This document shows positions 1 to 29,673 of a DNA stretch of 64,000 nt, piece by piece. Both the position numbers and the translations under genes were made by a program. The stretch's first letter is position 1, and each line of letters begins with the position of its first letter. The notes under the pieces are model-generated. The model ran no database searches. It had not been told where the DNA came from and was given only the letters and a program-made list of their open reading frames with translations. This DNA comes from Podarcis cretensis (taxonomy: Eukaryota), in the NCBI GenBank assembly GCA_951804945.1, contig OX638166.1:11532001-11596000 (forward strand), written 5' to 3'.

Positions 1-701
1 CAGGACACTTTGAAAGCCCCTTGCTCCTTGCAAAGAGTCCCGCCCAGCTCTTTGAAGCCCCAGTAATCAGTGGCATTTCAAAGCACCGTGCAGGGCTCTT
101 TGCAAGGAGTGCCCCACCCACCTCTCATCTGTTCTCTGGCAGGGTGAAGGGGGAGATAAGGCTCTGGCCTGCTGACCAGCTACAGTTCCCTACTCCTGTG
201 CTAGGTGGAAGTTTATCAGCTGGATGTGGGCCACAGAGCAAGGCCCCATTATCTCTTTCCTCACTTTTAAGAAAGAAAACTATTTTAAATGCCTGCATGT
301 GAGAGAAAGAAATTCCACACTTTCATGTTATGCTGCTCTGTTTCGATTTTGTGTGCAGCTTGGCCGAATGTGCTGTGTAACTGTGAAGTTTTTACTACAA
401 GATGGCAGTTCCTGATGCAAATAGATCAGTTTATATGGCAAAATATATTTTGGGTTTCGGGGTCACTGGAGGATAGAGCTTGAATGAGGCAACTCTGGCA
501 CACTATTTTTGGATTTTCAGCCACCGTAATCTAAGCTTCTTTTTTTAAAGAAACAAACAACTCAGTTGTCTCCTATCTATGTTTCTTTGTTTTCAGGTTG
601 CAAAAGAGGAAAATTTGAATCCTGCCTAGGAGCTGCTAAGCATTTTGTGTGTGTTGCCTTGTTTATTTGTTTATTGAAATAAAATCTGTTGTGGTTTACA
701 G

Positions 702-842
702 ATTAGAAGCAGCAAAGGATGATTATCGAATTCGTTGTGAAGAGTTGGAAAAGGAAATTGTAGACTTGCGGCAACAAAATGAAGAATTAACAAACCTGGC
801 TGAAGAAGCTCAGTCTCTGAAGGACGAAATGGATGTATTAAG
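702..842 (+). CDS. HOOK3: HOOK3 coding exon (approx. human exon 10): (R)LEAAKDDYRIRCEELEKEIVDLRQQNEELTNLAEEAQSLKDEMDVLR
   Basis: tttacag|A acceptor and AG|gtaagc donor, 141 nt; coiled-coil peptide recognisable as Hook microtubule-tethering protein 3. Confidence 0.96.
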
Positions 843-967
843 GTAAGCCACTTCTCTGCCCATAAGAATGTATATTTCTTCATGGGGCTGATTCTCAAGA
901 ACAAAGTTCAGTGGTACATTCTATACACAGTTTTCTAATGGATGTACGTTGCCGGTTCTGAATAAGC

Positions 968-1210
968 CACACTGGCTTCCTGTCCGTTACTGAGACAATT
1001 CAGTGTGCTGGTTTTAAACTTTAAAGCCCTAAATGGCTTAGGAACAGCCTACCTAACAGCTTGCCTCTGTCTGTATGACTCCCTCAACATTTAAGATCTG
1101 CCTCAATGTCCTCCCAGCATCTGAACTAAGGCTGCTGGTGTGATAACTGAGACAGGGCATATTCAGATGTGTCTTTTGCTTCTAGAATTCCCAGAGAGAT
1201 TGCCTGGTGC
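968..1210 (+). mobile_element. Old L2/CR1-clade LINE 3' fragment
   Basis: Degenerate HWLPV...FKALNGLG.AYL motif typical of L2 ORF2 C-termini; boundaries approximate. Confidence 0.6.
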
Positions 1211-1441
1211 AATCATTGCCTTCCTTTTCTGCCAGGTGAAAATATCTCTGTTTGCTCCTTTCTTTTTGATTGCTTGATTTTATATTATGCTGGAATTCTG
1301 TTGTTATTTTGTAGTATGCTTATTTTTTTAATAATGCTTTCTAAGAGCTTCGGCCGAGCAGCAGCTAATAAACGCTTACATTAAAACACATGCAGTAAAG
1401 GTTTTCCACCTATGGAATCTGTGCAACATCCCTCCCTCCAG

Positions 1442-1643
1442 GCATTCATCTGACAAAGTGGACAAGTTAGAAGGCCAGGTGGAATCATACAAAAAGAAGT
1501 TGGAAGATCTTGGAGATCTACGGCGGCAAGTGAAGCTCTTGGAAGAGAAGAACACAATGTACATGCAAAACACTGTCAGCTTAGAAGAAGAGTTGAGGAA
1601 AGCCAATGCAGCCCGCAGTCAGCTGGAAACGTACAAGAGACAG
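1442..1643 (+). CDS. HOOK3: HOOK3 coding exon (approx. exon 11): HSSDKVDKLEGQVESYKKKLEDLGDLRRQVKLLEEKNTMYMQNTVSLEEELRKANAARSQLETYKRQ
   Basis: ccctccag acceptor, CAG|gtgagc donor, 202 nt; frame continues from previous exon. Confidence 0.97.
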
Positions 1644-3042
1644 GTGAGCACAGGAGGGAGTGAAATTGGAGCTACTCCATTTCCCATTACTTGTAAATCG
1701 CTTTATGCCAGTCACCTTACAATTTCTTCTGTTCCTCAGCCAAGCTAGTGACCAAAAAATCCCTCATGCAGTTTTTCACAGAAATGCTTTGAAACACTAT
1801 TCCAAATTTCATAAAATCCATATGATATTTTGGATTGAGAGTTGGACTTGGACTAGGGATGATTAGGTTTATATTCCCACAGCTACAAAACTCACTTGGC
1901 GACTGCTATTTTTAAAGGATCAAGTCTTAGAAGTGAACTTGGAAATAGTGGTGAATTTGTTAACAAGTAAAAACTAGAAGAAAAGCAATCCCTGTCATTA
2001 ACAGATGTGTTTGATAGAATCTGGTCAACTATAATTATGATTAAAATGGCACATTTTAGATGAGTGTGTAATGAACAGCCAATAGTTTTTCAAACGACGG
2101 TCATTAAACATAAATATAAAATATAATGCCTTTTGTTGTAATTATATTCTTTTGTACAAACGTTTTCAGTTGAATCAATATTTTAATTGTTTTAAAAGTA
2201 AAATGGGGAAGGGAGTTAAAATGGGTTATTTATAGGGCACTTGGGGCCCATGGTCCAAAAAAAGGCTTCCAATTTGCCACATTTTGGTTTAGTTTTATCC
2301 TTCGTTGCAAAATCATCCACCTGATATTTCTCCATGTATCTGAGGAAACAACAGCTTTGTCTTTCGTAAGAGTCCCTGATAGGGCAGAACAAATATTGCA
2401 TTTATTTTATATATCTGGTATAATAACCAGAAAAGCAAGTCATACTCTGAGACAGTGTATTGAAGAGAGTGTATTGAGATTCAGCTGCATTAACGTAGCT
2501 GTGTTATGGAGTCAGTTGTGAGATATCAGTAGCAGTCTGCTTACATCTTTGAGTAATTCATTCTGCAGGAGACAGCAGCTGGACACCAGTTTCATTTCCA
2601 TGAATACTTGCTTCTCCATATCTACTGATATTACCACCAGTAAAACAACAGATTGAGTAGTAATTGTATTTATCTCAGTTTAGCAATTTCAGTATTTGAA
2701 AATGGAAGGCAGCTATGATTGCCATTGAGTGAAAATCGACCATTGATACAGCTCCCTTATCAGCTGGTTCGTTTCAATGAATCATTCTAAAGTTTACCAG
2801 TTTAGGGTGTGATATAAAGCTAATCTGCACTTAACTGAAATCAGAAGCAAAAATTTCTGAACTTGTCATTACTGCACCCGAGGAAGATTGCAGCGGGGAG
2901 TGCACAAGTCCAAGACTCACCTGGGCTCATTCTTGTAACAATAAACATTTTTTTATTGTTGCAAATGAACGTGCCATTGGCTCTTACGATGATTCATACA
3001 TTTTTGTGTTATTGGTGATGTGATCCCTTCTTGCTCTTACAG

Positions 3043-3153
3043 GTAGTTGAACTCCAGAATAGATTGTCTGAAGAATCCAAGAAAGCAGACAAATTAGAAT
3101 TTGAGTACAAGATGCTGAAAGAAAAAGTAGACAGTCTGCAAAAAGAAAAAGAT
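3043..3153 (+). CDS. HOOK3: HOOK3 coding exon (approx. exon 12): VVELQNRLSEESKKADKLEFEYKMLKEKVDSLQKEKD
   Basis: ctcttacag acceptor, GAT|gtatgt donor, 111 nt, phase 0/0. Confidence 0.96.
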
Positions 3154-5775
3154 GTATGTATCTAAATGTTGCTTTTTCATCCTTGATAGAAGCAACTTTA
3201 TTAACTCTTATCTCTTAAAAGAGTTGGTTTTTGATGTTGTCCCCTTATAAATCCTAGGTTAAATGTCTTTCTCTGTGCTGTAATGTAGTAGATTTCCGGA
3301 GTGCTTCTAAAAGCCTCTTCCAGCTCTTCTATTGGTTTCCTGCCTTCTTTATCTTTGTCTACCTTCTTTGACCTCCTCTCCCACTCTAAGTCTCCATGAC
3401 AGTTCCTAGTAACTTCTTTTAACTACTGCAACTGATCATGTTGTCTCACTTTCTGCGTGGTTTTCTACAAGGCTCCATCGCTGTTTCACATGTCAGTTCA
3501 TATGTAATGCCAAACCATGGTTTACCCTATGTCTATGGGTTGAGCTTGCATGCTGTTCCCTCTCTCACTCCACAGTTTATTTGTGTGTTTAGAGGGCCTG
3601 TGGAAGCCATGGTTTGCCATAAACCAAATAACTTAGCAGTTCAGACAGGGACGAAAGAGCATTGTGAGCACAGGGCTCTTTCTTGTTGGCATAAAACCAT
3701 AGCTTGGAGTTACATGTCAACCAACCCATGGTGTCTGTTGGTGCTTGCATTTTCATCTGTGGTTTTAGGTTTATGCAAATAATTCCCAGATCTACTTTCT
3801 CATACCTGACTTTTTGTCTTCCATGTGATTGTTTGATGTATGATGTTTCCTTCTGGATGTGGTTGTCTCCCATCTCAGATTTAATGTGGTGAAAATTGAA
3901 AAGTTCACTGTCTACCTTAATCTTTCCCTATCCTATGCTTTTCCATCACTATTTGTGATGCATTTATCTTTCTTGTTTACCAGAACTATAGTTAGTTAGC
4001 TCATCTCTGCATTCTTTTTGACACACATTCAGGCAATGCCCCAGAGCTGACATTTTCTCCTGCCACTTTCACTATCCTTTAAAAACTTCAGAATACCTTT
4101 CACAAAACATCCTATCACTAAGGTCATTGTACTCCTCTATTTAAATCTGCTTCTATACTTCGATTCTCTGTTGACAAAGTGCATAAAATAAACTTGAAAA
4201 AGCTTTCAGCGTGCAGGGAGAAAATGGATTTGGCTGTAACACCAGAGCCAGCTGTCATCAACACTACTTTTTCCCTTCTTCAGATGATATACATGAGTAG
4301 TTGCACAACTTTAGGTAGAAAAGCCCTTATTTCATTAACTAGAGCAGGCTCTGTGGAGAAAGGGAGGTTTGTCTGTACATCAACATCTTGCTCTTAGTCT
4401 ACTCGTTAAAAACCTGGGTCACTTTCCATCTTCATCTCTTTGGCTTGGCACAAGTTTACCCTTTCCTGCTGCACATATTTTCTCCCAACATCTGTGTTCG
4501 TTGCTTTTCCCCCCTGCTATTGTCTGTCTCGTCCTCGCCTTCCCTATGCTTCGAGGCACCTCGCTGTCTCTCCAGCCTAATGCTGTCTCTCCTTCCTCCC
4601 ACAATTGCAACTGCTTCATCGTTGTCTGCTTCCTAGGTAGAAATTAAATCTCTTTTCAACGTATTTCAGCATGATTCCTTTTTTGTTGTTTATTGTTGAG
4701 GGCCCTGCTGCCACCATAGTGTAGGCCTGACTGGGCCATTTCTGAACCTACATACCATTCATACATTGAAAACATAAAACGTATATTAATTTCAGGTTCT
4801 AAAGGGCCAAGCATTCTAGAGCAGTGGCTGTCTAGCTTTTTACATTCAAATACATTATGAAGTACATGTTAGAACACTGAGATGTGGCTGAAAATGGCAG
4901 CCCCTTGCCAAGTCTCTTCCCCAGCCCTTCAACCCTCCCTCCACTAACAATTAGTTCAACTTGTCTGGCCCTGACGCTGTTATGTTGTGCATTTTGCTGC
5001 GTCACTCCATTTCATAGGTTGACAGCGGGCAAGGAAATGCACACTGTAATGATGTTGGAACACTGACAAAAATTGAACTAGTTGCTATAGAACTCTTGGT
5101 TTTGGCAACAACCCCTCGTTCAATGTAAAAGAGGGTTTGACTGGAGGTGGTGGACTGTTGGGACAGTGTGTGCAAACATTCAATTAATATATAGCAGGGG
5201 GACGTCTTTGTCTTCTTTCTGTTTAGTAGATGGATACGGCCAGCTCTAAACTGCTAGGCACACAGGCATTTTTGCTCTGGGGGTCACAAGGAGTTAATGC
5301 CTTTCTGCTTTAAAGCAATGCTGCTGATTTCCCCCAAAAAGTCCCCCCAAAAGTGGCATGGGGAATATATCAGATACTTCTTCACTGCATTACTTTGCCT
5401 GTTTTCCTTCCCCATAACTTTCTGGAATTGCTAATACAATTTTCCAGTTAGTGCAAGGAACTGTTTGACAGTTGGCACTGGCATTTTTCCTCTGCTGTTC
5501 AAAGCCCTGCATGATGTTGATGAGTTTGAGATTCCACAAGTCTGTGGAGTCTGGATATATTTACCTACTGCATAATAGGCCCTTTCAGAAGACAAACTAG
5601 CAGATATTTCATTTCATTTCTTTTAGTTTTGCTTTGAAGTTCTTCACATGGAAGACTTTTTTTGGATACATAGATGATTAAAATCCTGACATGCAATGGT
5701 AGCCATTTTAGCAGTGCTTCATGAGTTGACTTGTAGAATTGTCACATATTTATCTATGTTTTTCTTTCTATGTAG

Positions 5776-5863
5776 CGGTTAAGAATGGAGAGAGATTCCC
5801 TGAAAGAAACCATTGAAGAGATTCGATGTGTACAAGCACAAGAGGGGCAGCTTACTACTTCAG
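5776..5863 (+). CDS. HOOK3: HOOK3 coding exon (approx. exon 13): RLRMERDSLKETIEEIRCVQAQEGQLTTS
   Basis: ttctatgtag acceptor, CAG|gtaaag donor, 88 nt. Confidence 0.95.
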
Positions 5864-6625
5864 GTAAAGAAAATCAAGATTATGAGATTTCACCTAAAAC
5901 ATCATGTAGAGAGTGTGGTGTGTGAAATACAAGATTTTGTTGTGGCATTTCAGGGAGTAGGTTGGTGCTGTTATTCATGAGTATATTTTAATAATCTGTG
6001 TGTCCCAAGTTAGTATCCTTTGCTGGGTCTCTTTTCCATTAATATTCCTTTATTGCTCTTCCCACATTTTGGTTTATATTGCATGGAATAAATAAATTGG
6101 TTGACGTTACCAGAGAAGAGGGTCATTTGCTTTATGGTCCTAGGGTGTAAGAGTAGGTTCCTTCCATATGGAAGATAAAACATGCAGGGAGGGAGGGAGA
6201 GACTTCAGATGTTATAAATAAACTGCTTTTTTCAGAGCACTTGAATTCTAGAGAATTGGAAAATCAGGCTGTTGTTTCTCACAATATCATAAAAATCTCA
6301 CAGTGGTTTGCTTCAGGGGTCATAAAAGGTGTAACAGTCTATTGAAATATAGTTCATTTGCCTGTTCACCTGGAGCAATCCTGCAAGGGTGCATGCAGAT
6401 ACAGCAATTTGAGCTCAAAACGCCTTAATTCAGAATTTTTGTCAAGCACCTGGGTTTCATTAATCAAAATTAAGTTTAAGATTATATCAGTTACATTTTA
6501 AGTCTTTCTATTGTAGCATGAAAGTTGGAATATGCATTGAAATACATTTGAAATAATTTACTTCTGTCACATCCTAGATTAGCCCTACATGATCTAAGCG
6601 TTTTCTTTTTCACTCTTTAAAATAG

Positions 6626-6695
6626 GATTGTTGCCCCTGGGAGGTCAGGAATCTTCTGACAGTTTAGCAGCTGAAATTAGTACCCCTGAAATCAA
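6626..6695 (+). CDS. HOOK3: HOOK3 coding exon (approx. exon 14): GLLPLGGQESSDSLAAEISTPEIK
   Basis: aaaatag acceptor, CAA|gtaagt donor, 70 nt; frame consistent with neighbours. Confidence 0.94.
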
Positions 6696-6930
6696 GTAAG
6701 TCTGAATTATATGGTCCTCTTTATGTCAGCATTGTATTTCATTAATGTTTTCATTAGTAGTAAGAGAAGCTGTTGTTATCAGTCTCCACTCCGTTTATAA
6801 TGTTCCCTCCCCGCAATGTTTGGTAAGGCAGTTCTTAAAATACTGTTCTTTCTGTGTTAATGTTACTGATGTGTTCTTCTGAGTCCCATTGCTGAATTTG
6901 TAATCCTGGCTCTCATCTTGTTTATTCAAG

Positions 6931-7071
6931 GGAAAAACTCATTCGCCTTCAACATGAAAACAAGATACTAAAGTTGAACCAAGAAGGATCTGATAATGAA
7001 AAAATTGCCTTGTTACAGAGCCTTCTGGATGATGCTAATCTCCGAAAGAATGAATTGGAGACTGAGAACAG
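6931..7071 (+). CDS. HOOK3: HOOK3 coding exon (approx. exon 15): EKLIRLQHENKILKLNQEGSDNEKIALLQSLLDDANLRKNELETENR
   Basis: ttattcaag acceptor, CAG|gtaaga donor, 141 nt. Confidence 0.96.
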
Positions 7072-8353
7072 GTAAGAAAGGGCTGTTTCCCCTTCAAAAT
7101 GGGGTCGTGTTCCTCTTTTCTTCAGTTCTACTTGCCCTGTGACAAAGGTTATGGGCTCTAATAGCTTTATCTTTCACTGATCATATGACATGACAAAAGT
7201 TCTGTTTCTGCAGTGTATTCCACAGTATTTTAAGGGGAGATGCATGTACTCATGGTAAACATGATAATATTTGAAAGGAAGAAGAATGTGCTTTTTGAAG
7301 AAGGCCATTGTGTCTGCAGATATTTGGTGAACACACTTACAAGCCACAGCTGACCCCGGGATATATTTATTGCATGTTTGAAGATCTTTGTGTGCCTCCT
7401 TCATATGCTGCTGTGTTCATCATGGGAGACACTTATCGCATACACCTACGTTTGTACTGTGTAATGCATTCCTAAATCTGTACAAAATGCAAAAAGACCC
7501 ATGTTTGAAGTGTAGGTCTTAGGGAAGTCTTATGACACAGGCTGTATGTTTTTAAAGGTAGCTCTAAAATTCTTCAGGCTTGAAGACCCAGTTTCTCCTT
7601 TCTTTTCTCCATTCCACAAAAGATCATACTCTCTGGTGAAATTATGCTTCTAAACTGGGGCTCTAGGAAGTCTTCTAGCCATAAGCTTTATCCCTGGTGG
7701 TTCAAAGGCATGCCCTGCCGAGCTCTGCTTTCTTGCAGTCTGAGACAACGGGATTCTGGAAAAGTTTTAATGTCAGAGGGGTTTTTTTATACTGTGTTAA
7801 TATTTTCTTATTGATTTTCCTTTGGAAGCAGCTTGCAAGGTGCTGTATTCAGCAAGAGATGGCAATCAATATTGTTCTTTTAGCTGCCCTTTAATTCATC
7901 ACACTATAAAGTTTGTTTAGAAAGGCCCTATTATTGTCAGTTCCCAGTTTGGTTGGAATGACAGAGAAGGTCTTTTCTGTTGCCATGCCCTGACTTTGGA
8001 ATTCCCTGTTTTGCTGCCTCCTTTTTTGGCCTGCCAACTTATCGTTAAGGCCTTTGGCCTTGTCATAATTACTTGTCTATTAGATTTTTATTGCTGCTAT
8101 GTTTAACTTCTTCAATTGCTACCTTGCTATTTTTCACATGTTTTATGATTTCTGTTAGCCACCTTGAAATGCACAAGGTGAGGCTATCACTGTGTTTAAA
8201 AATAATACTTTGTGCCACGTGTTCAAATGCTGTATGAATTGCACACTGAATTGTAAACAAAATTGGGCGACTATGGTTTTTTGTTATAAGGAGAATAAAT
8301 AAGACTTAATAGTTGTGTCTGAGAAGAAAGTGATTTTTTCTCATTATTTCTAG

Positions 8354-8441
8354 GCTCGTAAATCAGAGACTGCTTGAAGTACAATCTCAGGTTGAAGAAC
8401 TGCAGAAATCCTTACAGGAACAAGGTTTAAAAACAGAAGAT
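8354..8441 (+). CDS. HOOK3: HOOK3 coding exon (approx. exon 16): LVNQRLLEVQSQVEELQKSLQEQGLKTED
   Basis: atttctag acceptor, GAT|gtaagt donor, 88 nt, ends in phase 0. Confidence 0.96.
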
Positions 8442-8789
8442 GTAAGTGGAAAAAGACAAAAACTTCTTGCAATCAGTTTATAATAATGCTGACTTTTCCA
8501 GCATCTGGTATTCTAACTCAATCGACTTTAAATTTTTCAAAGCTTCATTTGCTTTCACATGTAAAAATAAAATAATGTGATTCCCTGGTTCTAACTATTT
8601 TTAAATGGGATCAGAGTTCCCAGTTTCAGATAAGAAGCTTCCTGCTGGCAAGTCTAGTCAATATGGAGCAACTGAGTTGATCACCTGTTTGGTGTGTTCA
8701 CTGTACAGGACCACCATGTAAACACTAAATCATAGGTGGCTAACTTGTGGACCTCCAGGCATTGTAGAACTACAGTTTGCATCATCTGT

Positions 8790-8930
8790 GGCACAATGAG
8801 CCACAGTGTGTGTGGCTGTTGACAAGAAGTTTGTTGGTTCGAGCCCACCCAGGGATGGTTGTGGGCAGGATATTCCTTCATTTCAGGGGGTTGGACTAGA
8901 TGACCCTCGGGGTCCCTTCCCACTCTGAGT
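8790..8930 (+). mobile_element. tRNA-derived SINE with CR1-like tail
   Basis: B-box-like GGTTCGAGCCC followed by the tail ggggttggactagatgacc...cccttcc; the same tail recurs at about 41335-41390 (+) and 62290-62372 (-). Confidence 0.6.
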
Positions 8931-9501
8931 CTTTGGAGTTGTGATTCAGCAGTAGCTGGAGGCCCACAGATTAGCAGCCCATGCTCTTAAAAGCATTCAA
9001 CAAAGTGTGTCAGTTTTTTACTTTTCCTTGGATGTATATACTGTACAACCCCAGCCACTTTTGAATGGGGGGAAAAAAGATTTGCATTTTGTATCATTGT
9101 TAGGTGGGCTGCCATTCACCTCATCTAATTACTTCTGGTTGCTTTCGCATGTAGTCCTTACCTTACAGTGACCTCAACCATCTTTTGAAAGTTAAGGTCG
9201 AGTTGATATTCGTGTATGTGTTTTATTCAAAAGATGTCTCGTTGCAGCATTTGTGTTTTAATTAGAGCACTTATTCATATACTTGAAACGGGTTTGTGCT
9301 AGCTTTCCACAGCTCTCTAGAGGATGAGACAGGAGGAAGAGACCTTAGAGAGCAGAGAGAGAAGAAAATGTGCATGCTCTGAGAATGCCTTGCTTTAAAT
9401 GTGTTCTCTTCAGAAAGATACTATGTAGTTTATTCTGTTGGCTGCTGTTTGCTTCGTACTAATCTGTTGCCTCTGTCTCTCGGCACGGGTTTCTGCTGAA
9501 G

Positions 9502-9507
9502 GCTATT
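9502..9507 (+). CDS. HOOK3: Putative 6-nt alternative microexon of HOOK3 (GCT ATT = Ala-Ile)
   Basis: Branch point TACTAAT 9457-9463, pyrimidine tract, TGC at 9494-9496, aag|GCTATT|gtgagt; frame-preserving between two phase-0 junctions. Confidence 0.8.
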
Positions 9508-10869
9508 GTGAGTATGGCTTCCTATTTACTTCAATCTGCTCTTAATCAGTCAATGCCGATTTGTGGCTCTGTTTTTTCTTTTTAAGAGAAACTTAAATGG
9601 ATAAAGTTTCCGTTCTTATTCATGTTATGTTTCACGCTTTCTACGTGTTGTGCACCTGTGGCTTAGCAGAACCTTAGGGGGCGTACATCTCCCAAATATT
9701 TTTATGTGTGTTGTTATCGTGGCAATGCTTCAGCTGTGTTTGTTGCATGCTTCCTTAGACACAGGTGAAGAAGTTTGCAAGTACTGCAATCAACCACAAT
9801 TTCAGTTATTTAATTTGTAGTTAATGCTTTTACACAATTTTTATGTAGGCGTTTCCATACAGGACTGAGCCACATTAAAATTTACATTTATTGCGGTGTT
9901 CTCGCATTGTTCTTATGACAGAAATCATGACATGGGCTGTAAATCCCTTGTTTCTTAAATAGGGGTGCCTTAATATTTTATAACATTCCTAAATGAACAC
10001 ACTTCTGTGTAGGAATTGGCATGAAACCCATGTATGACTCAACTGCACCTTCTGAAGGGGAGGGCATTGGAGATCATCACCGCTCCTTTGCAAATGTTGC
10101 ACATGGCAATGTACATGTCGATTGCATGTACAAGATTTTTACATGAGACTTGCAATATGCTCCTCAAAACCTAGCTATACCTTTTTGAACAATTTGGAAG
10201 TGGTTTTAACAAATTTATGTACTATGCATTCTTATATATTTAGAAAGCAAAAAATTTCCATACTTGGTCAAATTAGTGCATTTAGATCAACGGTGCACAT
10301 ATGCTATGAACCTTGTCTGAATAGGGCTACATTGCATGTATGTAGCAGCTATGTTTTTGGCTTGTGTGGCACCGGTTAACTCCCTCGACTGTATCTCATT
10401 TTTTTTACAAAGTCGCTGAGGGTAGTAGCTGTCTGACAATTGACAAAATTGCTGCCAGAACAGAGCAGCCACATACCCAGCCTGTAACATAGCATGCCCA
10501 ATGCAACTGTGGGTCAGTTCATGCAGTAGGCACTAAATGAGACCATTCTGCCTGGCCATGCATACAGCTTGGAGGGTACCACTACTTTTCACTGACCTTC
10601 CGACAGCTTCAAGGATTCCTTCATCTTTCGAGGTGGGTGAATGAACAGGTAGCTGCTACAGATGGAATGGGTCACGTAGGACTTGGCTTAGGGGCTGCTG
10701 TGTGAACTGGACTCGAAATGAATTACATTACATTACATTGTACATGAGCGGTACAAAGCAGAACAACCTTAATCTTTTTTTAAAAAGCATTTTGTTAAAT
10801 TGTAAAAATGTCAGTTCCACCCATAAAATACATCTATATGCTAATGTTGGCAACAAAACCCAGTGGTGG

Positions 10870-10902
<33 letters not shown>

Positions 10903-11280
10903 ATACCCCACCCATCTGGCTGGGTCCCCCCCAGCCACTCTGGGCGGCTTCCAACAAAACACTAAAATACAATAACCTATTAAACATTAAAAGCTTCCCT
11001 AAACAGGGCTGCCTTCAGATGTCTTCTAAAAGTCTGGTAGTTATTTTTCTCTTTGACATCTGGTGGGAGGGCGTTCCACAGGGCGGGTGGCACTACCGAG
11101 AAGGCCCTCTGCCTGGTTCCTCATAACTTGGCTTCTCACAGTGAGGGAACCGCCAGAAGGCCCTCGGCGCTGGACCTCAGTTTCCGGGCAGAACGATGGG
11201 GGTGGAGACGCTCCTTCAGGTATACTGGACCGAGGCCGTTTAGGGCTTTAAAGGTCGGCACCAACACTTTGAATTGTGCT
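10870..11280 (-). mobile_element. L2-clade LINE 3' end, 5'-truncated, with (ATC)n tail
   Basis: Minus strand translates AQFKVLVPTFKALNGLGPVYLKERL...RAFSVVPPALWNALP with stops; (GAT)n microsatellite at 10870-10900 forms the tail. Confidence 0.85.
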
Positions 11281-11611
11281 CATGGCGCACTTTTGTCAGA
11301 GAAAAGCTACTTTTGGGAGGGGGGTGATATTTGGTATAAGAGCAGGTGGTCCTTAACCTTTCCCTGCTCCAATTCTCACCCCTCGCCTGGTGGGATTCCA
11401 GGTTTATATTAGTTTTTCCTTGCTTTCACATGTCTTGCACTGTGAGAAGAAATAAACTTAAGAGGGTCCAGCTGAAAAATATTAAGTACCTGAGGCTGCC
11501 CATTTAGGCTTTGTTGCACACATTTGCTTTAACTTTTTGTTCTACCCTCAGTTTTCAAATCTATGCCACAATGAATGCTTCAAATAACACTTTTTTTCCT
11601 TTTGTTTTTAG

Positions 11612-11646
11612 TCAGTCATTCTGAAAAAGAAGCTTGATGAACATCT
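11612..11646 (+). CDS. HOOK3: HOOK3 coding exon (approx. exon 17): SVILKKKLDEHL
   Basis: Long T tract plus ttag acceptor, CT|gtaagt donor, 35 nt. Confidence 0.93.
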
Positions 11647-11994
11647 GTAAGTAGTAAAATGTTTTCTGCTACTTATGTAAGGATAGTAAAACAATTATTC
11701 TTATCCCAGGCAGCACAGTTAGGAGTGAACCAGCTCGAGATGGTTAATACATTGAGCATTTAAAAGCTATTTTTAGATCCTAACCCTAAATATATTTTTT
11801 TAAAAGTTAGTACCACCAGTTCAGGGTATCTTGAGACTGTATTGTTAGCTTAATGAATTTTACCGATAGGGATCAGGTGGCATATATTTTGTTAAATTTG
11901 ACAGAAGTTTTAGAGTGTTATTCTGAAATAGGAATTTTCCAGGGAAAAGTAGTTCAGCAACCGGTCATACTCTGGCTCTATCTTTTTTTAATAG

Positions 11995-12077
11995 TGAAAA
12001 GCTGCATGAAGCTAATAATGAGCTTCAGAAGAAGCGAGCTATCATTGAAGAGTTAGAGCCTCGATATAACAACAGTT
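11995..12077 (+). CDS. HOOK3: HOOK3 coding exon (approx. exon 18): EKLHEANNELQKKRAIIEELEPRYNNS
   Basis: ttttaatag acceptor, T|gtaagt donor, 83 nt. Confidence 0.95.
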
Positions 12078-12951
12078 GTAAGTAGTGTTATATTTTGCCT
12101 CGTAACTGATTTTTATTGTTATAATCGTAAAAACACTTCTTTCGAAACACAAATAAATGTCTTAAGACAGCTAATTTAGGACTCTGCATTTGGTTTATTT
12201 ACAACACAGCATCTAGTTATTTTCCTTTAAATCAGCTAAACCATGATAATTGGCTCTTTTCTTCATTTAGATAACACAGTGTTGTATGTTTGTAACTGGC
12301 ACTTACTCTGAATGTCATTGAATAGTCTGGCATAGGTAGCCTCCATTTGTATTATATACCACCACTATATGGAGACAGGTAATCTTTTTAAAAAAAACAA
12401 CAGCACACAGGTTGCAAGGCTGTCCCAAGACATTTTGCTGCCTATAGCGAAACAGCAAATGACATCCCCTAACTCCCCCACCTCCCAAAAGAAATCGAGT
12501 CAAGGATCATGGTATGTAAGATTGCCCATATCATTTTGGCACCTGATACAAAAAATCGCACAAACACCTCTCCCAGGGAGTATAAACAAATAAACAAAGA
12601 ATGTTTTGCTGCCCCTTAAAGATCTTCTGCTTGAGGTAGACACTGCACTCTCCCTGCCATGAACATTCCCAATACATATGCCAGAATTAGGCTTGTCAAC
12701 ATCTTAGTTTTGAGTACCCTGTCCAGCCTCGGAAATCTATTTGCACAACATCTTTAAATGGTGTACTAAACTCCCTAACAGCAGTTTAATTGCATATGGG
12801 TTCATGGTCCTTGAAGAACTCGCGATAAAAAACGTCCACACAAATGAAACCCAAAGGAAGAGGAGGACACAAGGTTTGCTGTACTCTGCTGCCAAGTTTT
12901 CCTCTGCATCTCCATTGTTACGCTGGATGGAGGGGTTTCAACCTCCCCACC

Positions 12952-12955
<4 letters not shown>

Positions 12956-12995
<40 letters not shown>
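12956..12995. repeat. (TG)n microsatellite
   Basis: About 20 perfect GT units. Confidence 0.98.
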
Positions 12996-12997
<2 letters not shown>

Positions 12998-13247
12998 GTA
13001 TAGGTATAGAGAGAAAGAGAAAGAGAGAGAGCTGTCTGACTTGAACATCATGTTTATGTGCAATGGGGGCTGTTCTTGGGGGAGGGTGTTTCCAAGCCAG
13101 CAATCTTCCCTGTCAAAGGGATTGGATTTCCATTTCCAAATATTCTTAATAGCCCCATAAACACACCTGTCTTTTCAAACTTACTTTAAAAAGTGTTCCC
13201 ATAAGCTGTCAGCAATATCTGAAATGTGACATCTTCTCCCAATAAAG

Positions 13248-13348
13248 CTCTCAAAATAGAGGAGTTGCAGGAAGCTTTGCGTAAAAAAGAAGAAGAAATG
13301 AAGCAAATGGAGGAAAGATACAAGAAATACTTGGAAAAGGCTAAAAGT
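13248..13348 (+). CDS. HOOK3: HOOK3 coding exon (approx. exon 19): SLKIEELQEALRKKEEEMKQMEERYKKYLEKAKS
   Basis: Weak aataaag acceptor, AGT|gtgagt donor, 101 nt; frame consistent. Confidence 0.94.
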
Positions 13349-13527
13349 GTGAGTATCTTCTGTTCTCCACCATGTTCCTTAGAGGGCTGAGACTTGTCCT
13401 CCCTCTGTAGCCTCACAAAATTATCAATTGGAATTAACAATATGCCAATACCAAGAATAAGTTAGATTGTGTTTTAAGATTTTTTTTTTAAAAAAATTAA
13501 CTCTACCAGCTCTGTGTATCTTGTTAA

Positions 13528-13738
13528 GGATCCATAGCGCAGTTGGTAGAATGCATATTTTGCATTTGGAAGGTTCCCAGGTTCTCTAGCATCTCAGCCT
13601 AAAGGATTTGGGACGTAGGTGATGGGAGAGACATCTGTCTGTCTTGAGACCCTGCGGAGTCCCTTCCAAGGATAACAGACAATGCTAGGATAGATGGGGA
13701 AATAGTGTGACCCAGGAGAAGGCATTTTCCTGTGTTCT
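13528..13738 (+). mobile_element. Old tRNA-headed SINE
   Basis: A-box-like tagcgcagttggtaga head; body and tail resemble common squamate SINEs; degenerate. Confidence 0.55.
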
Positions 13739-13771
13739 TACTTTGTGCTGTATGGTTCTTGCCCCTTGCAG

Positions 13772-13876
13772 GTGATCCGTACTTTAGATCCCAAACAGAA
13801 CCAAGGGTCGGCACCTGAGATTCAGGCACTGAAGAATCAGCTGCAAGAACGTGACAGGATGTTCCATTCTTTAGAG
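13772..13876 (+). CDS. HOOK3: HOOK3 coding exon (approx. exon 20): VIRTLDPKQNQGSAPEIQALKNQLQERDRMFHSLE
   Basis: ccttgcag acceptor, GAG|gtaact donor, 105 nt. Confidence 0.96.
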
Positions 13877-14161
13877 GTAACTTATGCTGGGTTAGCCTAA
13901 ATTGTTTTAACTTGAGTTTGACATTGGGCAGGATTCAACCAACAAGTCCCGCCAATGGAAGCCTGTACTTGCGCAGTGGGGTCCCCCCCCCGCCACCACG
14001 CCCTTCAAAATTGACTTGTTTCGGAAGCTAAAAAGCTTCCACCAATGGAACAATTGCCATGGGGCTACATTGAATTTCCCATCTGTATTTTTACTCGGTT
14101 GTATCCTACCCTGAGACCTTATTGCCAAGGGTAGGTAAGACATCTGTAATAAATAGCAGTA

Positions 14162-14384
14162 CAGTGGAACCTCGCTTTTCGAACGTAATCCATTCCGGAA
14201 GACCGTTCCACTTCCGAAATGTTTGAAAACTGAGGATCAATGGGCGGTTGGCAAACTCTATTGAAAAAATAGATAAATACGTAGCGGAAGCCATTCAAAA
14301 ACGGAAGCAATTACTTCCAGGTTTTTGGCGTTTGGGTTCCGAATTGTTCGTCAACGGAGACGTTCGAGAACCGAGGTTCTACTG
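14162..14384. mobile_element. Tc1/mariner (Tigger/pogo-like) MITE
   Basis: TA|cagtggaacctcg...cgaggttctactg|TA: terminal inverted repeats and TA duplication. Confidence 0.9.
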
Positions 14385-14992
14385 TAGTAGTAACTTGCAG
14401 ATCAGTTCTATGTGTGTTTTCTCAGAAGCAAGTTCCACTAATTTTTCAGCTGGCTAATCCTCTGGCAAGAAAGCAAAACTGTCCCTCCCTGATGCTGATG
14501 AATGAGGGCAAGATTTGCATCGTGAGCAGCTCGCTGCCTCTTCATCACAGAGAGGAATATTGCCAGTCAGAGGGACTTCTCCTCTGCGTCAGAGGTCCCA
14601 GCTTTGCCCAGGCATGCAGAAAGCCACCACTAACAGATCTCCTTCCAGTGGTAGCAATTGGAGTGCCATAAAAAGCGGGGTGCAATGCCTGCAACTCTGG
14701 AACTGGCATAATGAACAATTACAAGAAGCTGCTCCCTCACACGCCCACCTCCACTCACAAACCTTTTGCCCTGGTTGGTGTGAGTGCCAGAGCTCCAGAT
14801 GCAGCAGGAGATCTGCCACTTCACTCTTTCCTGGCCCCAAGTTAGGATTGCTCTATCCTTGTGCATAGAATTGCTGCGCTGTTGGCAATTATATTGTGCT
14901 CCTGAATGTTCACTGTTGGATTAAGTTTTCATCCTGGGCTCCTGATTGGAAGTAGCAGCCTGAATGTAAAAACAGGCAGCCGTGCACCACGT

Positions 14993-15296
14993 AAAGGTAA
15001 AAGGTAAAGGACCCCTGGACAGTTAAGTCCAGTCAAAGGACACTATGGGGTTGCGGCGCTCATCTCGCTTTCAGGCTGAGGGAGCCAGAGTTTGTCCACA
15101 GACAGCTTTCTGGGTCATGTGGCCAGCATGACTAAACCGCTTCTGGTACAACAGGACACCGTGACGGAAACCAGAGCACATGGAAACGCTGTTTACCTTC
15201 CCGCCACAGTGGTACCTATTTTTCTACTTGCACTGGTGTGCTTTCCAACTGCTAAGTAGGCAGGAGCTGGGACAGGGCAACAGGAGCTCACCCCGT
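14993..15296 (-). mobile_element. Sauria (Squam1-type) SINE, 5'-truncated
   Basis: (ACCTTT)n-type tail, homologous to the copy at 47439; flanked by tgcaccacgt / tgcaccatgt duplication. Confidence 0.9.
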
Positions 15297-15496
15297 TGCA
15301 CCATGTGGTCACTAATTGAAAATGCTTTTTTATGATGGCTCTAATGACGTGAGGTGTCTGTGGCCTCCAGCACATGTTGCTACAACTAATGGGGAGTAAA
15401 ATTCATGCACTTGGACCTGCAATGCTGCGCTGCATAAATACCTTTAGCACGATAGCCAAATAATCAAAAGCGCTTGATAATGCTTTTCTTAATTAG

Positions 15497-15568
15497 AAAG
15501 AATACGAGAAAACGAAAACTCAAAGAGATATGGAGGAGAAATACCTTGTCAGTGCCTGGTACAATATG
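15497..15568 (+). CDS. HOOK3: HOOK3 coding exon (approx. exon 21): KEYEKTKTQRDMEEKYLVSAWYNM
   Basis: ttaattag acceptor, ATG|gtaagt donor, 72 nt; conserved Hook family motif EEKxxxSAWYNM. Confidence 0.96.
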
Positions 15569-17259
15569 GTAAGTAGTCCAAAGTGAAAATAAACACTCAG
15601 ATATGACATGTGTTTGTAATAGGTTTTCCTGAACAAGGATGTTAAGTGCAGGGGCGTCGATTGGATTACCATAGAGATTTGTAGTTTGTGGTATGTTTTT
15701 ACTCTTTGCTGCTTCAGGACCTCTGCTCCAGGCTTCAGGAGGAAGTGTGTGTGCTGTGATGCTGCAGGAAACAGGTGGGAGAGGGGTGGGAGAGCACAGC
15801 ATTGGTCCTAAGCCCCAAGCATACCTGGAAACTCCATAACGGAGGTACATGAGATAGTCTACTATGGCTAAAGTCACTTTTCACATGAAAAGCCTACCTT
15901 CTTTCAGGTTTTTTTTGAACCCATATTTGATTTTTAAAATGCCACCTAAATACTACTTTTCACTCCTCCTTCTGATTAGTAGATCAGTTGCAGGTGTAAG
16001 CTAGAGGAATTTTTAAAATTCTTTCCGTAACATGACTCATCCTTCTGTGGCTTCTGTATCCAGGCCTATTTCTTTCAGCTGTCTCATTATAATTGTCAAA
16101 CATAGTTCAAAAACCCTTCTAAATGGCTGGCTGATTTTGCCTGAAACAGCAGGGTACAAAATCTAGCTTCCTGAGAATCTCGGCTTTCATTTTTTTAAAA
16201 GAGCTTTTTTTCTATATTTCTTGGCTCTGAAGATGCACCTGAAAGTACATCAGCTATGAGCCTAATAAAATTTCAGAGGCCTCAGTAAGATTTCTGGTCA
16301 TTGTAGGGTAGGGTGTATGTGCTTTATATACTTTCATGTATGTACATATAGATGTATAAAACCACCTCCTGCTTTGCACGCAGACGGGACAGACACATGT
16401 ATAAATACACATTTGCTGCCCCATCATGTCCAGCTTAGCTGTTGGATGGGAAAAGGCAAATTTCTGTAAGATTTAAACAAGTATTCAGCAGCACACAGCA
16501 AAGCTAAGGTGGAAAGCTTTTGAAAAAATGGTGTTCACTGTGGCCCTGTGCTGCGTTACGTGCATTTTATGAGCATCTGCCTTCTCCAAAGTCCGTTTTC
16601 TCTCTACAGGCGAGGAAGTGAGGCTTGCAAGTATTCTTACCATAATCAGAAAGCGATAATGGAAATAAAGGGTGACAGGTTCCTACTGTCATAGCCTCCA
16701 TAATTCAAGAATCATGATCCATCCGTCAAGCAGTGTGAAAGGAAAGGTTTTGATAACCTTAAAGCTGGGTCTAGGGGCATGTTTTCGTCTTCCAGGAGGT
16801 ACCCATACATAGGGGTTGGTCAGCAAGCGTCAGCTCATCTGTGGAAGCTTTGCACCTGTACACAGGAAGCAACCTCGTCACAGCCATGCTACTATAGTTG
16901 CCATACCTCTGAAGTTTAGTTGTTCACCACTGCCACTGGAGAATTGATAGAGGTCATGCATGCTGGTGCAGTGTGGCTAAGATTGTCACCTGGGAAGTTG
17001 CCAAGTTCATCTCATGCCTGCCATGAATTTATTAGATGGCCTTAAGCAAACTACTCTCTCTTAGCTTTAGCCAGAACTCTCAAAACGTGCAATGGAAATG
17101 CTAAATTTGATGATGAACATTTGGGTTTTACTATGGACTCTTGGCTCCCTGCCCCAAATCTGGGTGGCCCTGTTTGGGAAAGGGACGGTCTAGCGCAGCC
17201 AACACACCGTAGTAGAGCAAACTTAATGCATGTTTTAGTTATTACCTCTTTCATAATAC

Positions 17260-17645
17260 AGGAACCCAGGGTTATCGATGAAGCTGATCCATGGCAGAAC
17301 CAGGACAGACCAAGGAATTACTGCTTTGCACAGCACATGGTTCAGTTATGGAATTTGCTACCACAATTTATAGTGATGGCCACCAATGTGGACACCTTTA
17401 AAAGGAAATTTGACACATTCATGATGGATAAAGCTATCAATAACTACCAGTCATGTTAGTTGCATTAGTTCTAGTATCAGAAGCACTGTCTCCCTGAGTA
17501 CTGGTTGATGAGGAGCATGAATGGGAGTTTGCTGTTGCATTCATGTCCTCATAGTGGGCTTCCCATGGGTATCTGGCTGGTTACTGTGAGAGCAGAATGC
17601 TGAACAGGAGGGGCCTTTGATGTTATCCAGCAAGGCTGCTCTTAT
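17260..17645 (+). mobile_element. CR1 LINE 3' fragment
   Basis: Encodes ...YCFAQHMVQLWNLLPQFIVMATNVDTFKRKFDTFM, a CR1 ORF2 C-terminus, followed by a CR1-like 3' UTR. Confidence 0.8.
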
Positions 17646-17668
17646 ATACCTGCCTTTTCTCTTCCTAG

Positions 17669-17809
17669 GGTATGGCTCTTCATAAAAAAGCAGCAGAAGA
17701 CAGACTTGCTACCACAGGCTCAGGACAGTCCTTCCTGGCTAGACAAAGGCAAGCCACCAGCACAAGAAGAGCCTATCCTGGCCATGTCCAGCCAGCGACA
17801 GCAAGGTAG
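17669..17809 (+). CDS. HOOK3: HOOK3 terminal coding exon: GMALHKKAAEDRLATTGSGQSFLARQRQATSTRRAYPGHVQPATAR*
   Basis: cttcctag acceptor; SFLARQRQAT Hook C-terminal motif; TAG stop at 17807-17809. Confidence 0.97.
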   Translation, partial: GMALHKKAAEDRLATTGSGQSFLARQRQATSTRRAYPGHVQPATAR

Positions 17810-20800
17810 AAGAAGGCCCTGCCTTTTGAATGGAAGCCATCCTGGGATCAAGGCCTACTTCTGTTACGAGTGACAGCATTTCAGGAAACTTTAGCCAGCA
17901 TCCTTTCTGTATCTTTGTTCCTTGCGGTTGCTGTTAACTTCTCATTTCAGGAAGGTAGTTGTTTTTTTTTTTCTTTTTTAAGAAAACACTTTCTCAGTGT
18001 TTTTAGTCTTACTTTCTGGAGCCTTCCCTTTGTCTTTTGATGTGCCAAAATGTTGGAAAACACCTAGTGGAATGTAATAACGGAATCTCCCCCTCTCTTC
18101 CCCTTGTTTATATGGAATTGTCCTGTCTCACCTGAAAGCTGATGATGGCTAAGTAGCAAACCGGAAATGTCCCGTTGGCAAATGATGTTGCCATCCTTTC
18201 CAAGGCTACCATTGTATAAAGGGAATTACCTTTTCTTTCTCAATCCAGTCTGATCTGTTTAAATTATGTGATGGAATTTGCAATGGTGTTGCATAGAATT
18301 GTTATGAAATGTGTTAGCAGCAATAGTCAGATGCTGGCAGAAGCTGTAACCTGGCTGCAAGTACCTGATCACGTGTGTTCATGTCCTTCTATTTATCCTT
18401 CTCTTGGCTTTAATTTGGAGAGGCAAGCTGATTTTTGTCCTTATTTGCCCATGTTCTTTTTTTCCTTTTTAGCATCACTAAGGTTTAAAATGATTTGATG
18501 TTCCTGTTCCATTCTTGGTTAGTTCAATCACAGTGGAATATGGCAACCATTCATTGCATGGCCAATTGCTTTAAAGCTTCCCCCTCTGTACTCTAACCAA
18601 GTGGAGCACCCATCCTTTTCATTGTCATGTTATTGCAGTTCTCCACCTGCTTGGAAATCCTAGGAGATGGGACCATAGTAGTATTCTACTTACTGTGTGC
18701 CTTGATCCTACAGATGCCTAGTATTCTACATGGTTAAACCATCATGGAGAAATTTTATGAAGCAGTGAACTGTGTAGAACAGTGCCCTCCTGGTCCCCCA
18801 GATATCATTTGACTCAAACTCCTCTGAGTCCCAGGCAACATGATCAGGCATGATGGGAGTTGTAGTTCAAAAAGTTCCCCATCCCTGGTGTATCAGGGTT
18901 GATTTTGATTGGATGTCTTTGGTGGATGCTGTCTTCAAATTGCCATCTACCACTGAGGACAATTTTTAATAGGTCAATAAGGAGGGAGAGTCTATTCATT
19001 GCCTTACAGATGGTACCATTGCCTTCAGGCTTGGTGATTCTGACATGAAAACTCACTGTCCTTTAGTGCCAAATCTTCATACACACATGCCTGTACTGTT
19101 AATGGGTCTTTGTCATGAAGGAAGGCTAGCAATTCCCCTTCAGATTCTGATCCTTCCAAGTACTGCGTTCTAGATGTTGAGCCACTTGCACCCTTTTCAA
19201 ATTAATGTGTGAGAAGTTTGAGGTTGCTCAAGACGAGTAGTTCCATATGGATCCGCCATGGAAGTAGTTTAGAGGTTTTGTTGGAAAACTTCACCTTAAA
19301 ATAAAAATTCAGTGTGTCTAACGTTCAGCAGAGAACAGCTTTTGTTGTGTATCCTTCCAAATGTAGATCATAGTGACCTTTTCCTTTTCAGGAGGGGAAA
19401 GGAATCAGAGATGGCTTTAACTTGGAAGTCCACCTGGTTTTTATGGTCACATTTTCAGTATAAAATGTTTTTCTTCTCATCCTCATTTTGTGCGAGAATG
19501 CACAGCACAACTTAATTTTAAGAAAGGAATTTTGCCTTTATTCAGCACCACCCTAGTACATAAAAGGAGTTCTTAAAGTTCAGTAATGTGTAGAATAGTA
19601 ATTAAAAGGCAAGGTGTGGTTGTTAGCCCTTTGTAGTATGGTTTCAATGTTAGATGAAGTAAGTCAGGTATTTCCCTCAGTAGGCATAAAAGTAAATAAA
19701 AAAATCCTTCACGGGATCATTCACTTGGTAATCTGCCTTTTTTCTGCAATGGTGAATTTGAAGCTGGAGACAAAATATGGGAGGTATCTATGCATAGTTT
19801 TCAATTGCACTTACAAGCAAACGTGTTAGATTGGCATCCTGTCTTTTTTTGCTGGTGGCAAGTAGTGTACTGGAAGCAAAAGAGCAGTGATTAGTATTGA
19901 GTTAACCAGTTTTAGAGTAATGCATATTATTACACTTGCTATTCCGGGTCAGATAACATCTCCAAGAGTCTTAATTTTGCCAGCTGAATGCTTCTGTAGG
20001 CAAAAACTTCTTATTCTGTTGGGAGTGGCAGGAGAGTGTTTTTTTATTTTCCACAGGCTGTTGTGCATCTTATAGAACTATTCCTGTTTGTTCTGTGCCT
20101 GAAAGAAACTTGAAGACAACTTTAATTTTACAATTGAACCCGCATCTTTTTCTTTTTCTGCTTTTGATTTCCGTTCTTGCTTTCCTTTCTCTCTTAGCTG
20201 GCGCTGGGGTTTTGCCTGTCTTCCACAGCATATTTTTGTTTCGTTTTTCATCTAGCATGAAAGCAAAAGCAACTTCTTTCTCCACTTTGGCTGCCATATT
20301 TTTTGTTTGCATTGAAGTGGGAGGCAGGCTTATTATCAGTATTCTGAAATGTCAAGAACCCTTCATTAAAAACACAATTAAATTTTACTTTGATGCATTG
20401 AGAACCGAATATACATTCTTGTTGATCATTAAAAACCAAGGAAAGCAACAGTCAAGGATGAAATTCCCAGAACGACAGTTGCACTTAATTCCTTTTGAAA
20501 TGAATAAAGACAGTTGTGGTTATATTAAGTGTCTCTAATTTCTAGAGGACTTAAGTGCAACTGACTTTCTATATATCAAGGTCATTGTGTCTTGCTGCTG
20601 TATGCAGATTTTGTGGCAAAGACAGAAATAAAAGGCTTGTTTCTAAAATATTTATATTGGGTGGAATGGAAACAATTCATAAACCAAGCAAGTCTGTTAA
20701 TTTTTTATAAACATGTTCACTGAATTTTCCTCGGATAGAGCAGCAGTAATGTTGGCTTGTACTTCCTTATTCGAGATGTGTTCTAACGATGGATAAAATT

Positions 20801-27847: not shown

Positions 27848-27853
27848 TTTATT
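27848..27853 (-). terminator. Candidate KCMF1 poly(A) signal (AATAAA on minus strand)
   Basis: TTTATT on +; minus-strand downstream context is GT/T-rich; about 1.8 kb after the KCMF1 stop. Confidence 0.4.
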
Positions 27854-29242
27854 GAACTGCGTGTCTTATTGTAATGTGCAGGTGTGTTTGAAAAGACTAC
27901 AGCTTGAAAACTGGTTTTGAAAATCCTCAACAATTAAAAAAAAAATCCCTAGCTGGGTTAAACTCCCAAGATAACCAGAGGGCTGCTGTAAAATTCCCCC
28001 TTAGAACATTCTGTTGCAGAGACTAAAAAAAAGAAGAACCAAATCTAGTACTGCATTTTATATAGAAATAACTGGAGTCAGAAACTAAAAACCAGTGGGT
28101 GGGGCGTTTTCCCATTTTCGATGAGAATCTGTCCTTTTAAAACCCCACCATCCTGCTCAAGTCTGCAATTTAATTCTAAGATGCTTGCTATGTAGCAGAA
28201 GTGGAAAGGGTAGAGAGGGGAGATAGAGATGAAGAAAGTGAGAGAACCAGAGAGAAACATGATTATTGTCTAAGCCTAGTTTAGATTTAATCAGAAGCTG
28301 TGTGCAATTTTGTCTTTATAGTCTAACTTTACATTCCCTTCCCCACCACCCCAACCCCCCCAAAACAAAAAAACCCTCCTGTCCCTGCCTTGGGGCTATT
28401 ATGAAAGTCTATGCACAAAAACACTGTACATTTTTATACATACAGGATTAATAGTATAGGCATGTAGGTGGCATGATTCAATTAAAAAGGCTTTTTACTT
28501 TTTTTATACCAGGAAAAAAAATCAAGAAATAATAAATAAAAAGGTGCTAGAATTAGCATTAAGAATGCAGTTGTAATATATTGACAAAAGTTTGGGAAGT
28601 CAACCTCCTCAAGCTCTCCTGTTGCTGACAAGTCTCTGCAAACTAGGTAGCAAATACATAAATAACTCAAAAACATATGATTGAGACTGTGAAGGTTTTT
28701 AAAACTAAGACAACATAATCCAGGTTAACTTTTGTTTTCTTTTAAGACAATGAGCAAATGAATAATCTACACCTGAATAAAACATGTTTTAACAGTTTGA
28801 AAATGGTTTTCTTTTAACAACCACAAAAAGGAAAAAAAAACTTTTAAACAAAGTTGAACAAGTATTTTGATTATAGGGCACACAAAAAGCCCCCTTTGCC
28901 AGAAGATTTTGGCAGTGGCCTTACTTTTGTGTCTCCTAGAGATGCATAAAAAGCAGGCTGAAACTCCACGTGGATGTGCGGTGGTTATAGAGAGCAACAC
29001 AAGGGTCACACCGAGCAAAACGTCACACCCTGGAAACAAGCTGTCCCACTGCAGAGCTTGCATGATGTGCAAACGGCACATGTAATAAAAGTGGTTCAGA
29101 CATACATTATTCAAAAGCTACTTGATGGCCACACAATGCTAAGTGAGCATTAACTTCTTTGCCTTGTAACCTTTGAATAATGGGAAAGCTTTTGGGGGAG
29201 GGAGAGGGAGTCGTTTATAGTTTTACTCCTTGTATTTAAATT

Positions 29243-29672: not shown

Positions 29673-29673
29673 A

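Follow-up and report, generated by a model that had tools for sequence, protein, structure and literature searches.

A six-nucleotide HOOK3 cassette microexon in Podarcis cretensis, with the splice-signal layout of SRRM3/SRRM4 targets and a predicted effect on coiled coil CC3

The HOOK3 genes of human and mouse contain a 6-nt microexon that is already catalogued as a target of the splicing regulators SRRM3 and SRRM4. The human exon (HsaEX0030349, chr8:43000271-43000276) is listed in the tables of PMC7935315 as a microexon among the 314 exons that SRRM4 changes in HEK293 cells. In these tables its PSI rises with SRRM4 from 35.9 to 88.8 in HEK293, from 18.8 to 64.3 in HeLa, from 21.4 to 77.8 in HCT116, and from 0 to 13.6 in xenografts; it is 10.0 in normal breast and 15.6 in kidney. 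Inclusion in non-neural human tissue and cell lines is thus listed there at 10-36%, with a shift in breast tumours that is opposite to the one in kidney tumours. This baseline indicates that SRRM3/4 is not the sole route to inclusion and sets the exon apart from the two-thirds of SRRM4 targets that, according to the same source, are excluded outside neural tissue.

In mouse, the 6-nt exons MmuEX0023183 of Hook3 and MmuEX0023175 of the paralogous Hook2 are both recorded as eMIC-dependent (PMC8797185, table S2), a class defined by Srrm3/4 knock-down in N2A cells and by Srrm4 knockout brain. The Hook2 exon has a PSI of 91-93 in wild-type cortex and 73-93 in mouse brain, with a change of -14 in the Srrm4 knockout, in the supplement of PMC4387716. 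In mouse Hook2 very short introns (~94 and 98 nt) flank this exon, and an alternative acceptor lies 3 nt upstream of it. As described in PMC11554263, two Hook2 isoforms differ by two coiled-coil residues, with different predicted packing. Hook3 itself was absent from the supplement files searched (5/6) of the Srrm4-knockout study PMC4387716 and was not found in the zebrafish, CHyMErA-seq, or photoreceptor (12/18 files) supplements, and none of the tables consulted gave a brain PSI for it; no Hook3 row was present in the files searched of PMC12626424 (12/12 files), PMC12868881 (1 file), or PMC9303857 (12/18 files). The portions consulted of PMC13262244, PMC8764412 (on exon 2 of HOOK3), and PMC4176328 (on editing of an acceptor) were unrelated to the microexon. 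A full-text literature search, whose scope excluded most subscription journals, returned no functional study of the HOOK3 microexon.

We analysed a 64,000-nt stretch of the Podarcis cretensis genome (hereafter the window; contig OX638166.1, positions 11,532,001 to 11,596,000), in which an initial annotation had proposed such a microexon from the letters alone. The HOOK3 protein of Podarcis raffonei (P0019) mapped to 13 exons at bases 694-17806 with ~95-100% identity apart from splice edges (tblastn). The protein contains the Pfam domains HOOK and HOOK_N, and a 47-residue exon query returned proteins named HOOK3 or Hook, which identified the host gene as HOOK3. The relevant features are as follows, placed by inspection of the sequence unless other evidence is given.

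8354-8441, + strand: constitutive HOOK3 exon 5' of the microexon, 88 nt, residues ~511-540 (tblastn of P0019, RNA joints)
8442-9501, + strand: intron 5' of the microexon, 1060 nt (also unspliced contigs)
9427-9428, + strand: nearest upstream AG, equivalent of the bird long-form acceptor; candidate acceptor in the lizard
9429-9499, + strand: AG-exclusion zone (71 nt) and conserved acceptor-side element (also tblastn)
9457-9463, + strand: predicted branch point, TACTAAT of the CTAAY type, with 9462 as the likely branch A
9464-9493, + strand: pyrimidine-rich tract with a UCUC run
9494-9496, + strand: TGC (UGC), predicted SRRM3/4 enhancer at -8 to -6 from the exon (role from features in PMC8797185)
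9500-9501, + strand: 3' splice-site AG, weak AAG context
9502-9507, + strand: cassette microexon GCTATT (Ala-Ile), 6 nt, phase 0/0 (inclusion contigs, Ala-Ile protein isoforms)
9508-9513, + strand: consensus 5' splice site GTGAGT
9508-11611, + strand: intron 3' of the microexon, 2104 nt (also RNA joints to 11612)
11612-11646, + strand: constitutive HOOK3 exon 3' of the microexon, 35 nt, beginning SVILKKK (tblastn, RNA joints)

Re-examination of the sequence placed the branch-point motif, TGC, AG, hexamer, and donor exactly where the initial annotation had put them. The upstream exon ends in ...KTED at phase 0 and is followed by the donor GTAAGT at 8442, so that inclusion would insert Ala-Ile after HOOK3 residue 540. 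With 6 nt, phase 0/0, and canonical AG/GT borders, the microexon falls in the class of 3-27 nt frame-preserving exons. Its surroundings have the eMIC cis layout, that is, UGC, a long AG-exclusion zone, a UCUC-rich tract, and a strong CUAAY branch point, and these match the features of eMIC targets described in PMC8797185. The tract is 70% C/T and is broken by a G-rich patch at 9482-9489, and three further TGCs lie upstream of the acceptor at 9443, 9450, and 9468. The lizard exon therefore shares with the SRRM3/SRRM4 programme a length of 27 nt or less, a preserved frame, the cis layout, and a consensus donor. High-copy interspersed repeats, with RNA-contig depth in the tens of thousands, occupy 8870-8930 and 10880-11280 of the microexon introns, with a run of ATG triplets beside them at 10858-10907; the surroundings of the microexon are repeat-free.

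RNA was surveyed as assembled contigs in eight of 18 runs guessed to be RNA, all 18 without tissue labels. The eight runs behaved as RNA, with GT-AG joints and empty neighbouring introns. In runs X1, X2, and X4 (3/8), contigs joined 8441 to 11612 via exactly the six microexon bases, the mapping placing the first G on base 8442 and the other five letters between the joined exons. In each of these runs a second contig led from the upstream exon directly to 11612. Depths of the inclusion and skipping contigs were 26 and 64 in X1, 36.1 and 40.2 in X2, and 33.4 and 57.4 in X4, giving rough, depth-based inclusion values of ~29%, ~47%, and ~37%; the three runs represent one sample of one study, from a close relative. 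The exon is therefore alternatively spliced in this organism, as both inclusion and skip forms occur in its RNA. Runs X5, X9, and X13 gave the skip joint only, and X3 and X14, which were mapped at stricter likeness (96), gave neither joint. Because contigs drop rare forms, a missing inclusion joint in these five runs does not mean absence of the exon. The mixed joints across runs fit regulated inclusion, without demonstrating regulation.

We then compared 171 fetched HOOK3-type proteins at the junction. Ala-Ile alone was inserted in 15 of them, from 13 tetrapod species (a caecilian, a gecko, a fence lizard, two turtles, five birds, Mus caroli, Leopardus [cat], and a colugo), 75 had the skipped form, four had other inserts, and 37 fell outside the pattern used. 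In gecko and caecilian isoform pairs Ala-Ile is the sole difference, and the Mus caroli protein P0150 carries it at 541-542 as a single indel relative to the 718-residue forms. The P. raffonei model P0019 has the same junction without Ala-Ile. These proteins, together with the RNA contigs, bear out a HOOK3 cassette microexon adding Ala-Ile with both junctions in phase 0, and they contradict the expectation that most annotation pipelines would miss it.

The pattern scored a further 40 as a longer form. In 41 of the 171 models, all birds by name (e.g. P0113), the insert is hydrophobic, 26 residues long, and has Ala-Ile at its end. It corresponds to a 78-nt exon form whose acceptor is 72 nt further upstream, and is either a real isoform or a by-product of modelling. 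The bird peptide had its best match in the window at 9442-9507 (tblastn, E 1.5e-5), in three blocks and three frames. This pattern indicates that an intronic element including the branch-point motif is kept between bird and lizard as nucleic acid, not as a reading frame. Contig mismatches were also lower near the microexon (5/419 letters in X5, versus 40/1223 in another intron piece; 3/366 in X14), a modest signal of local conservation. The case for intron conservation is built on the bird protein extension and the contigs of close relatives. Deep conservation was seen at three levels, namely in the 13 tetrapod species, in the upstream 79 nt compared with the bird extension, and in the equivalents in HOOK2 and lamprey described below.

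The initial annotation had put forward an alternative Ala-Ile in HOOK2 at the equivalent position, and the HOOK2 proteins confirmed it. Among 120 hits of a HOOK2 search, four (coelacanth, two caecilians, and shad) had Ala-Ile and one had Val-Ile; 106 had the skipped spacing, three had VS or VR, likely from mis-modelled donors, and six were unscorable. HOOK2 cluster members of turtle and caecilian included isoform pairs that differ by Ala-Ile alone at the same ED|S junction. In the lamprey Petromyzon, Pro-Ile at this junction is the sole difference between the Hook isoforms X1 and X2 (P0322, P0324). Across AI, PI, and VI the second residue of the insertion is constantly Ile, and the first varies (Ala, Pro, Val). 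Because HOOK2 has Ala-Ile and lamprey Hook has Pro-Ile at the same junction, the two-residue switch is likely to predate the split of HOOK2 and HOOK3, and the lamprey isoforms suggest that the microexon also predates jawed vertebrates. Its occurrence in HOOK3, HOOK2, and lamprey Hook suggests retention over ~500 million years.

No counterpart of the insertion was found among the invertebrate Hook representatives compared, in which the spacing across the segment corresponding to Gly535-Asp540 varies widely. An isoform difference in scorpion Hook was rejected as a counterpart, since it comprises one residue at the C-terminus. In the fly/mammal eMIC tables, Hook rows are absent ahead of the mouse sheet. 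The idea that HOOK1 has the +2 length constitutively was unsupported by the few HOOK1-like representatives, of which the lungfish protein P0205 has the skipped spacing.

The lizard exon agrees with human HsaEX0030349 in gene, 6-nt length, and microexon class, and the SRRM4 responses given above are those of the human exon. It likewise agrees with mouse MmuEX0023183 in gene and length, and Mus caroli P0150 carries Ala-Ile; the mouse introns are ~2.3 and 1.6 kb by the listed coordinates, compared with 1060 and 2104 nt in the lizard. The paralogous MmuEX0023175 shares the 6-nt length and is eMIC-dependent, and HOOK2 models insert Ala-Ile at this ED|S junction too. From the agreement in gene, length, and the single two-residue indel of the mouse model, we infer that the lizard exon is almost certainly the orthologue of the catalogued human and mouse HOOK3 exon, the tables giving coordinates and length only. 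By analogy it is very probably regulated in the same way, enriched in neural tissue with a basal level elsewhere. The initial annotation had predicted a neuron-specific switch; neural enrichment is very probable, since SRRM3/4 regulates the exons that are its likely orthologues in human and mouse, and specificity does not hold, given the 10-36% inclusion of the human exon in non-neural samples.

The signals suggest how such control may operate. The weak AAG acceptor, long AG-free zone, strong branch point, and consensus donor would make skipping of the 6-nt exon the default. SRRM3 or SRRM4 likely binds the UGC at -8 to -6, which would raise inclusion. By analogy with short targets with a marked UGC in PMC10250204, the downstream intron may be removed first. 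We conclude that 9502-9507 is, in all likelihood, a frame-preserving HOOK3 cassette microexon whose inclusion is likely raised by SRRM3/SRRM4 via the UGC and which is predicted to loosen mid-CC3.

To relate the insertion to the protein, we examined the coiled coil around it. In published work, CC3 and CC4 of HOOK3 fold back on CC2, KIF1C binds residues 607-632, and FTS/FHIP1B binds 653-718 (PMC11996680); PMC12152161 places KIF1C binding in 591-624. Two HOOK3 structural papers use 1-718 numbering, that of the skipped form, and the word 'isoform' does not occur in the text consulted. Residues 571-718, the C-terminal fragment whose structure was solved, correspond in alignment to 573-720 in the +2 mouse model, so that the published numbering follows the skipped form. 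The microexon site therefore lies in mid-CC3, ~50-66 residues before the KIF1C site and >110 before the cargo module, and not next to the cargo-binding region as had been proposed.

The heptad offset across the junction is +3 in the skipped form (17 residues) and +5 with Ala-Ile (19 residues), in agreement with the predicted two-residue change of coiled-coil register. In a canonical supercoil, these offsets correspond to rotations of about -51 degrees (skipped) versus +154 degrees (included). The skipped +3 offset is what we take to be an overwound stammer. Only two arrangements could absorb Ala-Ile: an underwound 7-4-4-4 run that takes the new Ile into the core (Leu531, Ala/Thr538, Ile542, Leu546, Leu550), or a brief interruption of the helix, for which the lamprey Pro speaks. 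Either would rotate the C-terminal, KIF1C-binding half of CC3 against the N-terminal one, and a turned CC3 could retune the CC2-CC3 fold-back, that is, autoinhibition. On this model we regard it as possible, rather than probable, that Ala-Ile loosens the middle of CC3, whose fold-back holds HOOK3 in the inactive state. A broader proposal is more tentative still: a two-residue switch older than the HOOK2/HOOK3 split may convert an overwound stammer in CC3 to an underwound or hinged segment, giving neurons a Hook adaptor that differs from the 718-residue form of the published structures in its autoinhibition threshold and in its balance between dynein and KIF1C transport.

A rival of considerable standing, which we place only a little below an even chance, accepts the exon and its SRRM3/4 control and holds that the two residues are nearly neutral, the soft Gly535-Asp540 segment absorbing Ala-Ile. 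AlphaFold2 monomer models of the gecko isoform pair placed the site within one helix (461-617), after an elbow at 433-458. The site is thus distant from both the elbow and the mapped binding sites, as near-neutrality would predict, and the secondary structure is the same in both isoforms, with the helix unbroken at the site, although monomer models do not resolve coiled-coil register. The pLDDT fell with Ala-Ile from 70 to 62 and from 80 to 71, a small difference that later blocks partly share, between models built on different alignments. The variable spacing of the segment in invertebrate Hooks and the variable first residue of the insertion also speak for tolerance. Against it, the insertion in HOOK3, HOOK2, and lamprey Hook keeps a length of exactly two residues, with Ile last, and the 17-residue skipped spacing in 106 of the 120 HOOK2 hits argues that length is constrained in vertebrates.

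The exon itself adds little, as its counterparts are catalogued and many gene models include it; the effect of Ala-Ile on the protein is the testable question. The fold-back of CC3 on CC2 is the means by which HOOK3 couples dynein and KIF1C, and if Ala-Ile alters it, neuronal bidirectional transport would use an adaptor form outside those published reconstitutions.

We also considered a main role at the RNA level, in which the element slows intron removal or feeds an upstream acceptor, thereby restricting the output of HOOK3 mRNA where SRRM3/4 is low. The whole interval between the constitutive exons (8442-11611) was covered at a depth of ~5-16 in all four runs checked, with contigs crossing both exon-intron borders, whereas the adjacent introns were at zero depth in these runs except for a depth of 3.4 on one intron in X9. 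This cover suggests slow removal or partial retention of 8442-11611. Use of the AG at 9427-9428 in the lizard would also yield a 79-nt exon, which would shift the reading frame and bring in a stop codon 26 nt inside the following exon. However, spliced forms exceeded the unspliced cover ~4- to 7-fold, and no contig using this AG was listed in the runs examined. Moreover, the same acceptor is in frame in the bird models (41/171), which argues that a decay switch is not conserved. We consider a predominantly RNA-level role improbable.

Still less probable is an ordinary alternative exon under other factors, such as muscle or epithelial regulators, with a secondary response to SRRM4. The basal inclusion in non-neural human samples and the opposite shifts in breast and kidney tumours would suit such factors, as would the lack of tissue labels in the lizard runs. 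On the other side, SRRM4 adds 45-56 PSI points in three human lines, the mouse exon is eMIC-dependent, and the lizard exon has the full eMIC-type layout.

The distinctness of this layout was assessed in the window by collecting AG-N(3n, 3-27)-GTRAG candidates and requiring TGC, CTAAY, an AG-free zone, and a pyrimidine content of 60% or more. One of the 75 candidates on the + strand had the full architecture, and it was the microexon at 9502-9507, in support of the SRRM3/4-type architecture claimed for it. Within bases 1-17800 of the + strand it was likewise the one passing candidate among 24, and on the - strand of the window one of 62 passed. Dinucleotide shuffles of the microexon intron yielded a passing site in 1 of 300, a figure that is generous because the motif was already known when the criteria were chosen. 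A chance motif in an intron is refuted, since loose AG-N-GTRAG patterns are indeed abundant (75 on the + strand, and a mean of 2.5 per shuffled intron) but spliced contigs hold exactly these six bases and the insertion is conserved across vertebrates.

Several other observations were made in the gene and its surroundings. The four extra residues of 722-residue HOOK3 models relative to 718-residue ones were considered as a possible second microexon; this was rejected, because the caecilian pair that was compared differs by an alternative C-terminus. An alternative C-terminus, ...SDVIA, occurs in 12 of the 171 HOOK3 models, and a possible donor for it overlaps the stop codon (17790-17830); no match to a strict pattern for its exon was found in 17800-30000. 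On the - strand, exons at 29674-32517 belong to a convergent gene, presumably KCMF1, and assembly gaps at 29243-29423 and 29458-29672 (396 N in all) lie at the 3' end of this neighbouring gene. A 213-codon open frame at 36079-36720, also on the - strand, presumably resembles a fragment of a retroelement ORF1. Pfam gave no confirming hit for the fragments of the convergent gene and no hit for the 213-codon frame. Contigs of 7.7-8.0 kb extend from the exon at 11995, and an AATAAA is present at 25515; the length of these contigs implies that the HOOK3 3' UTR is ~7 kb (window ~17810-25500).
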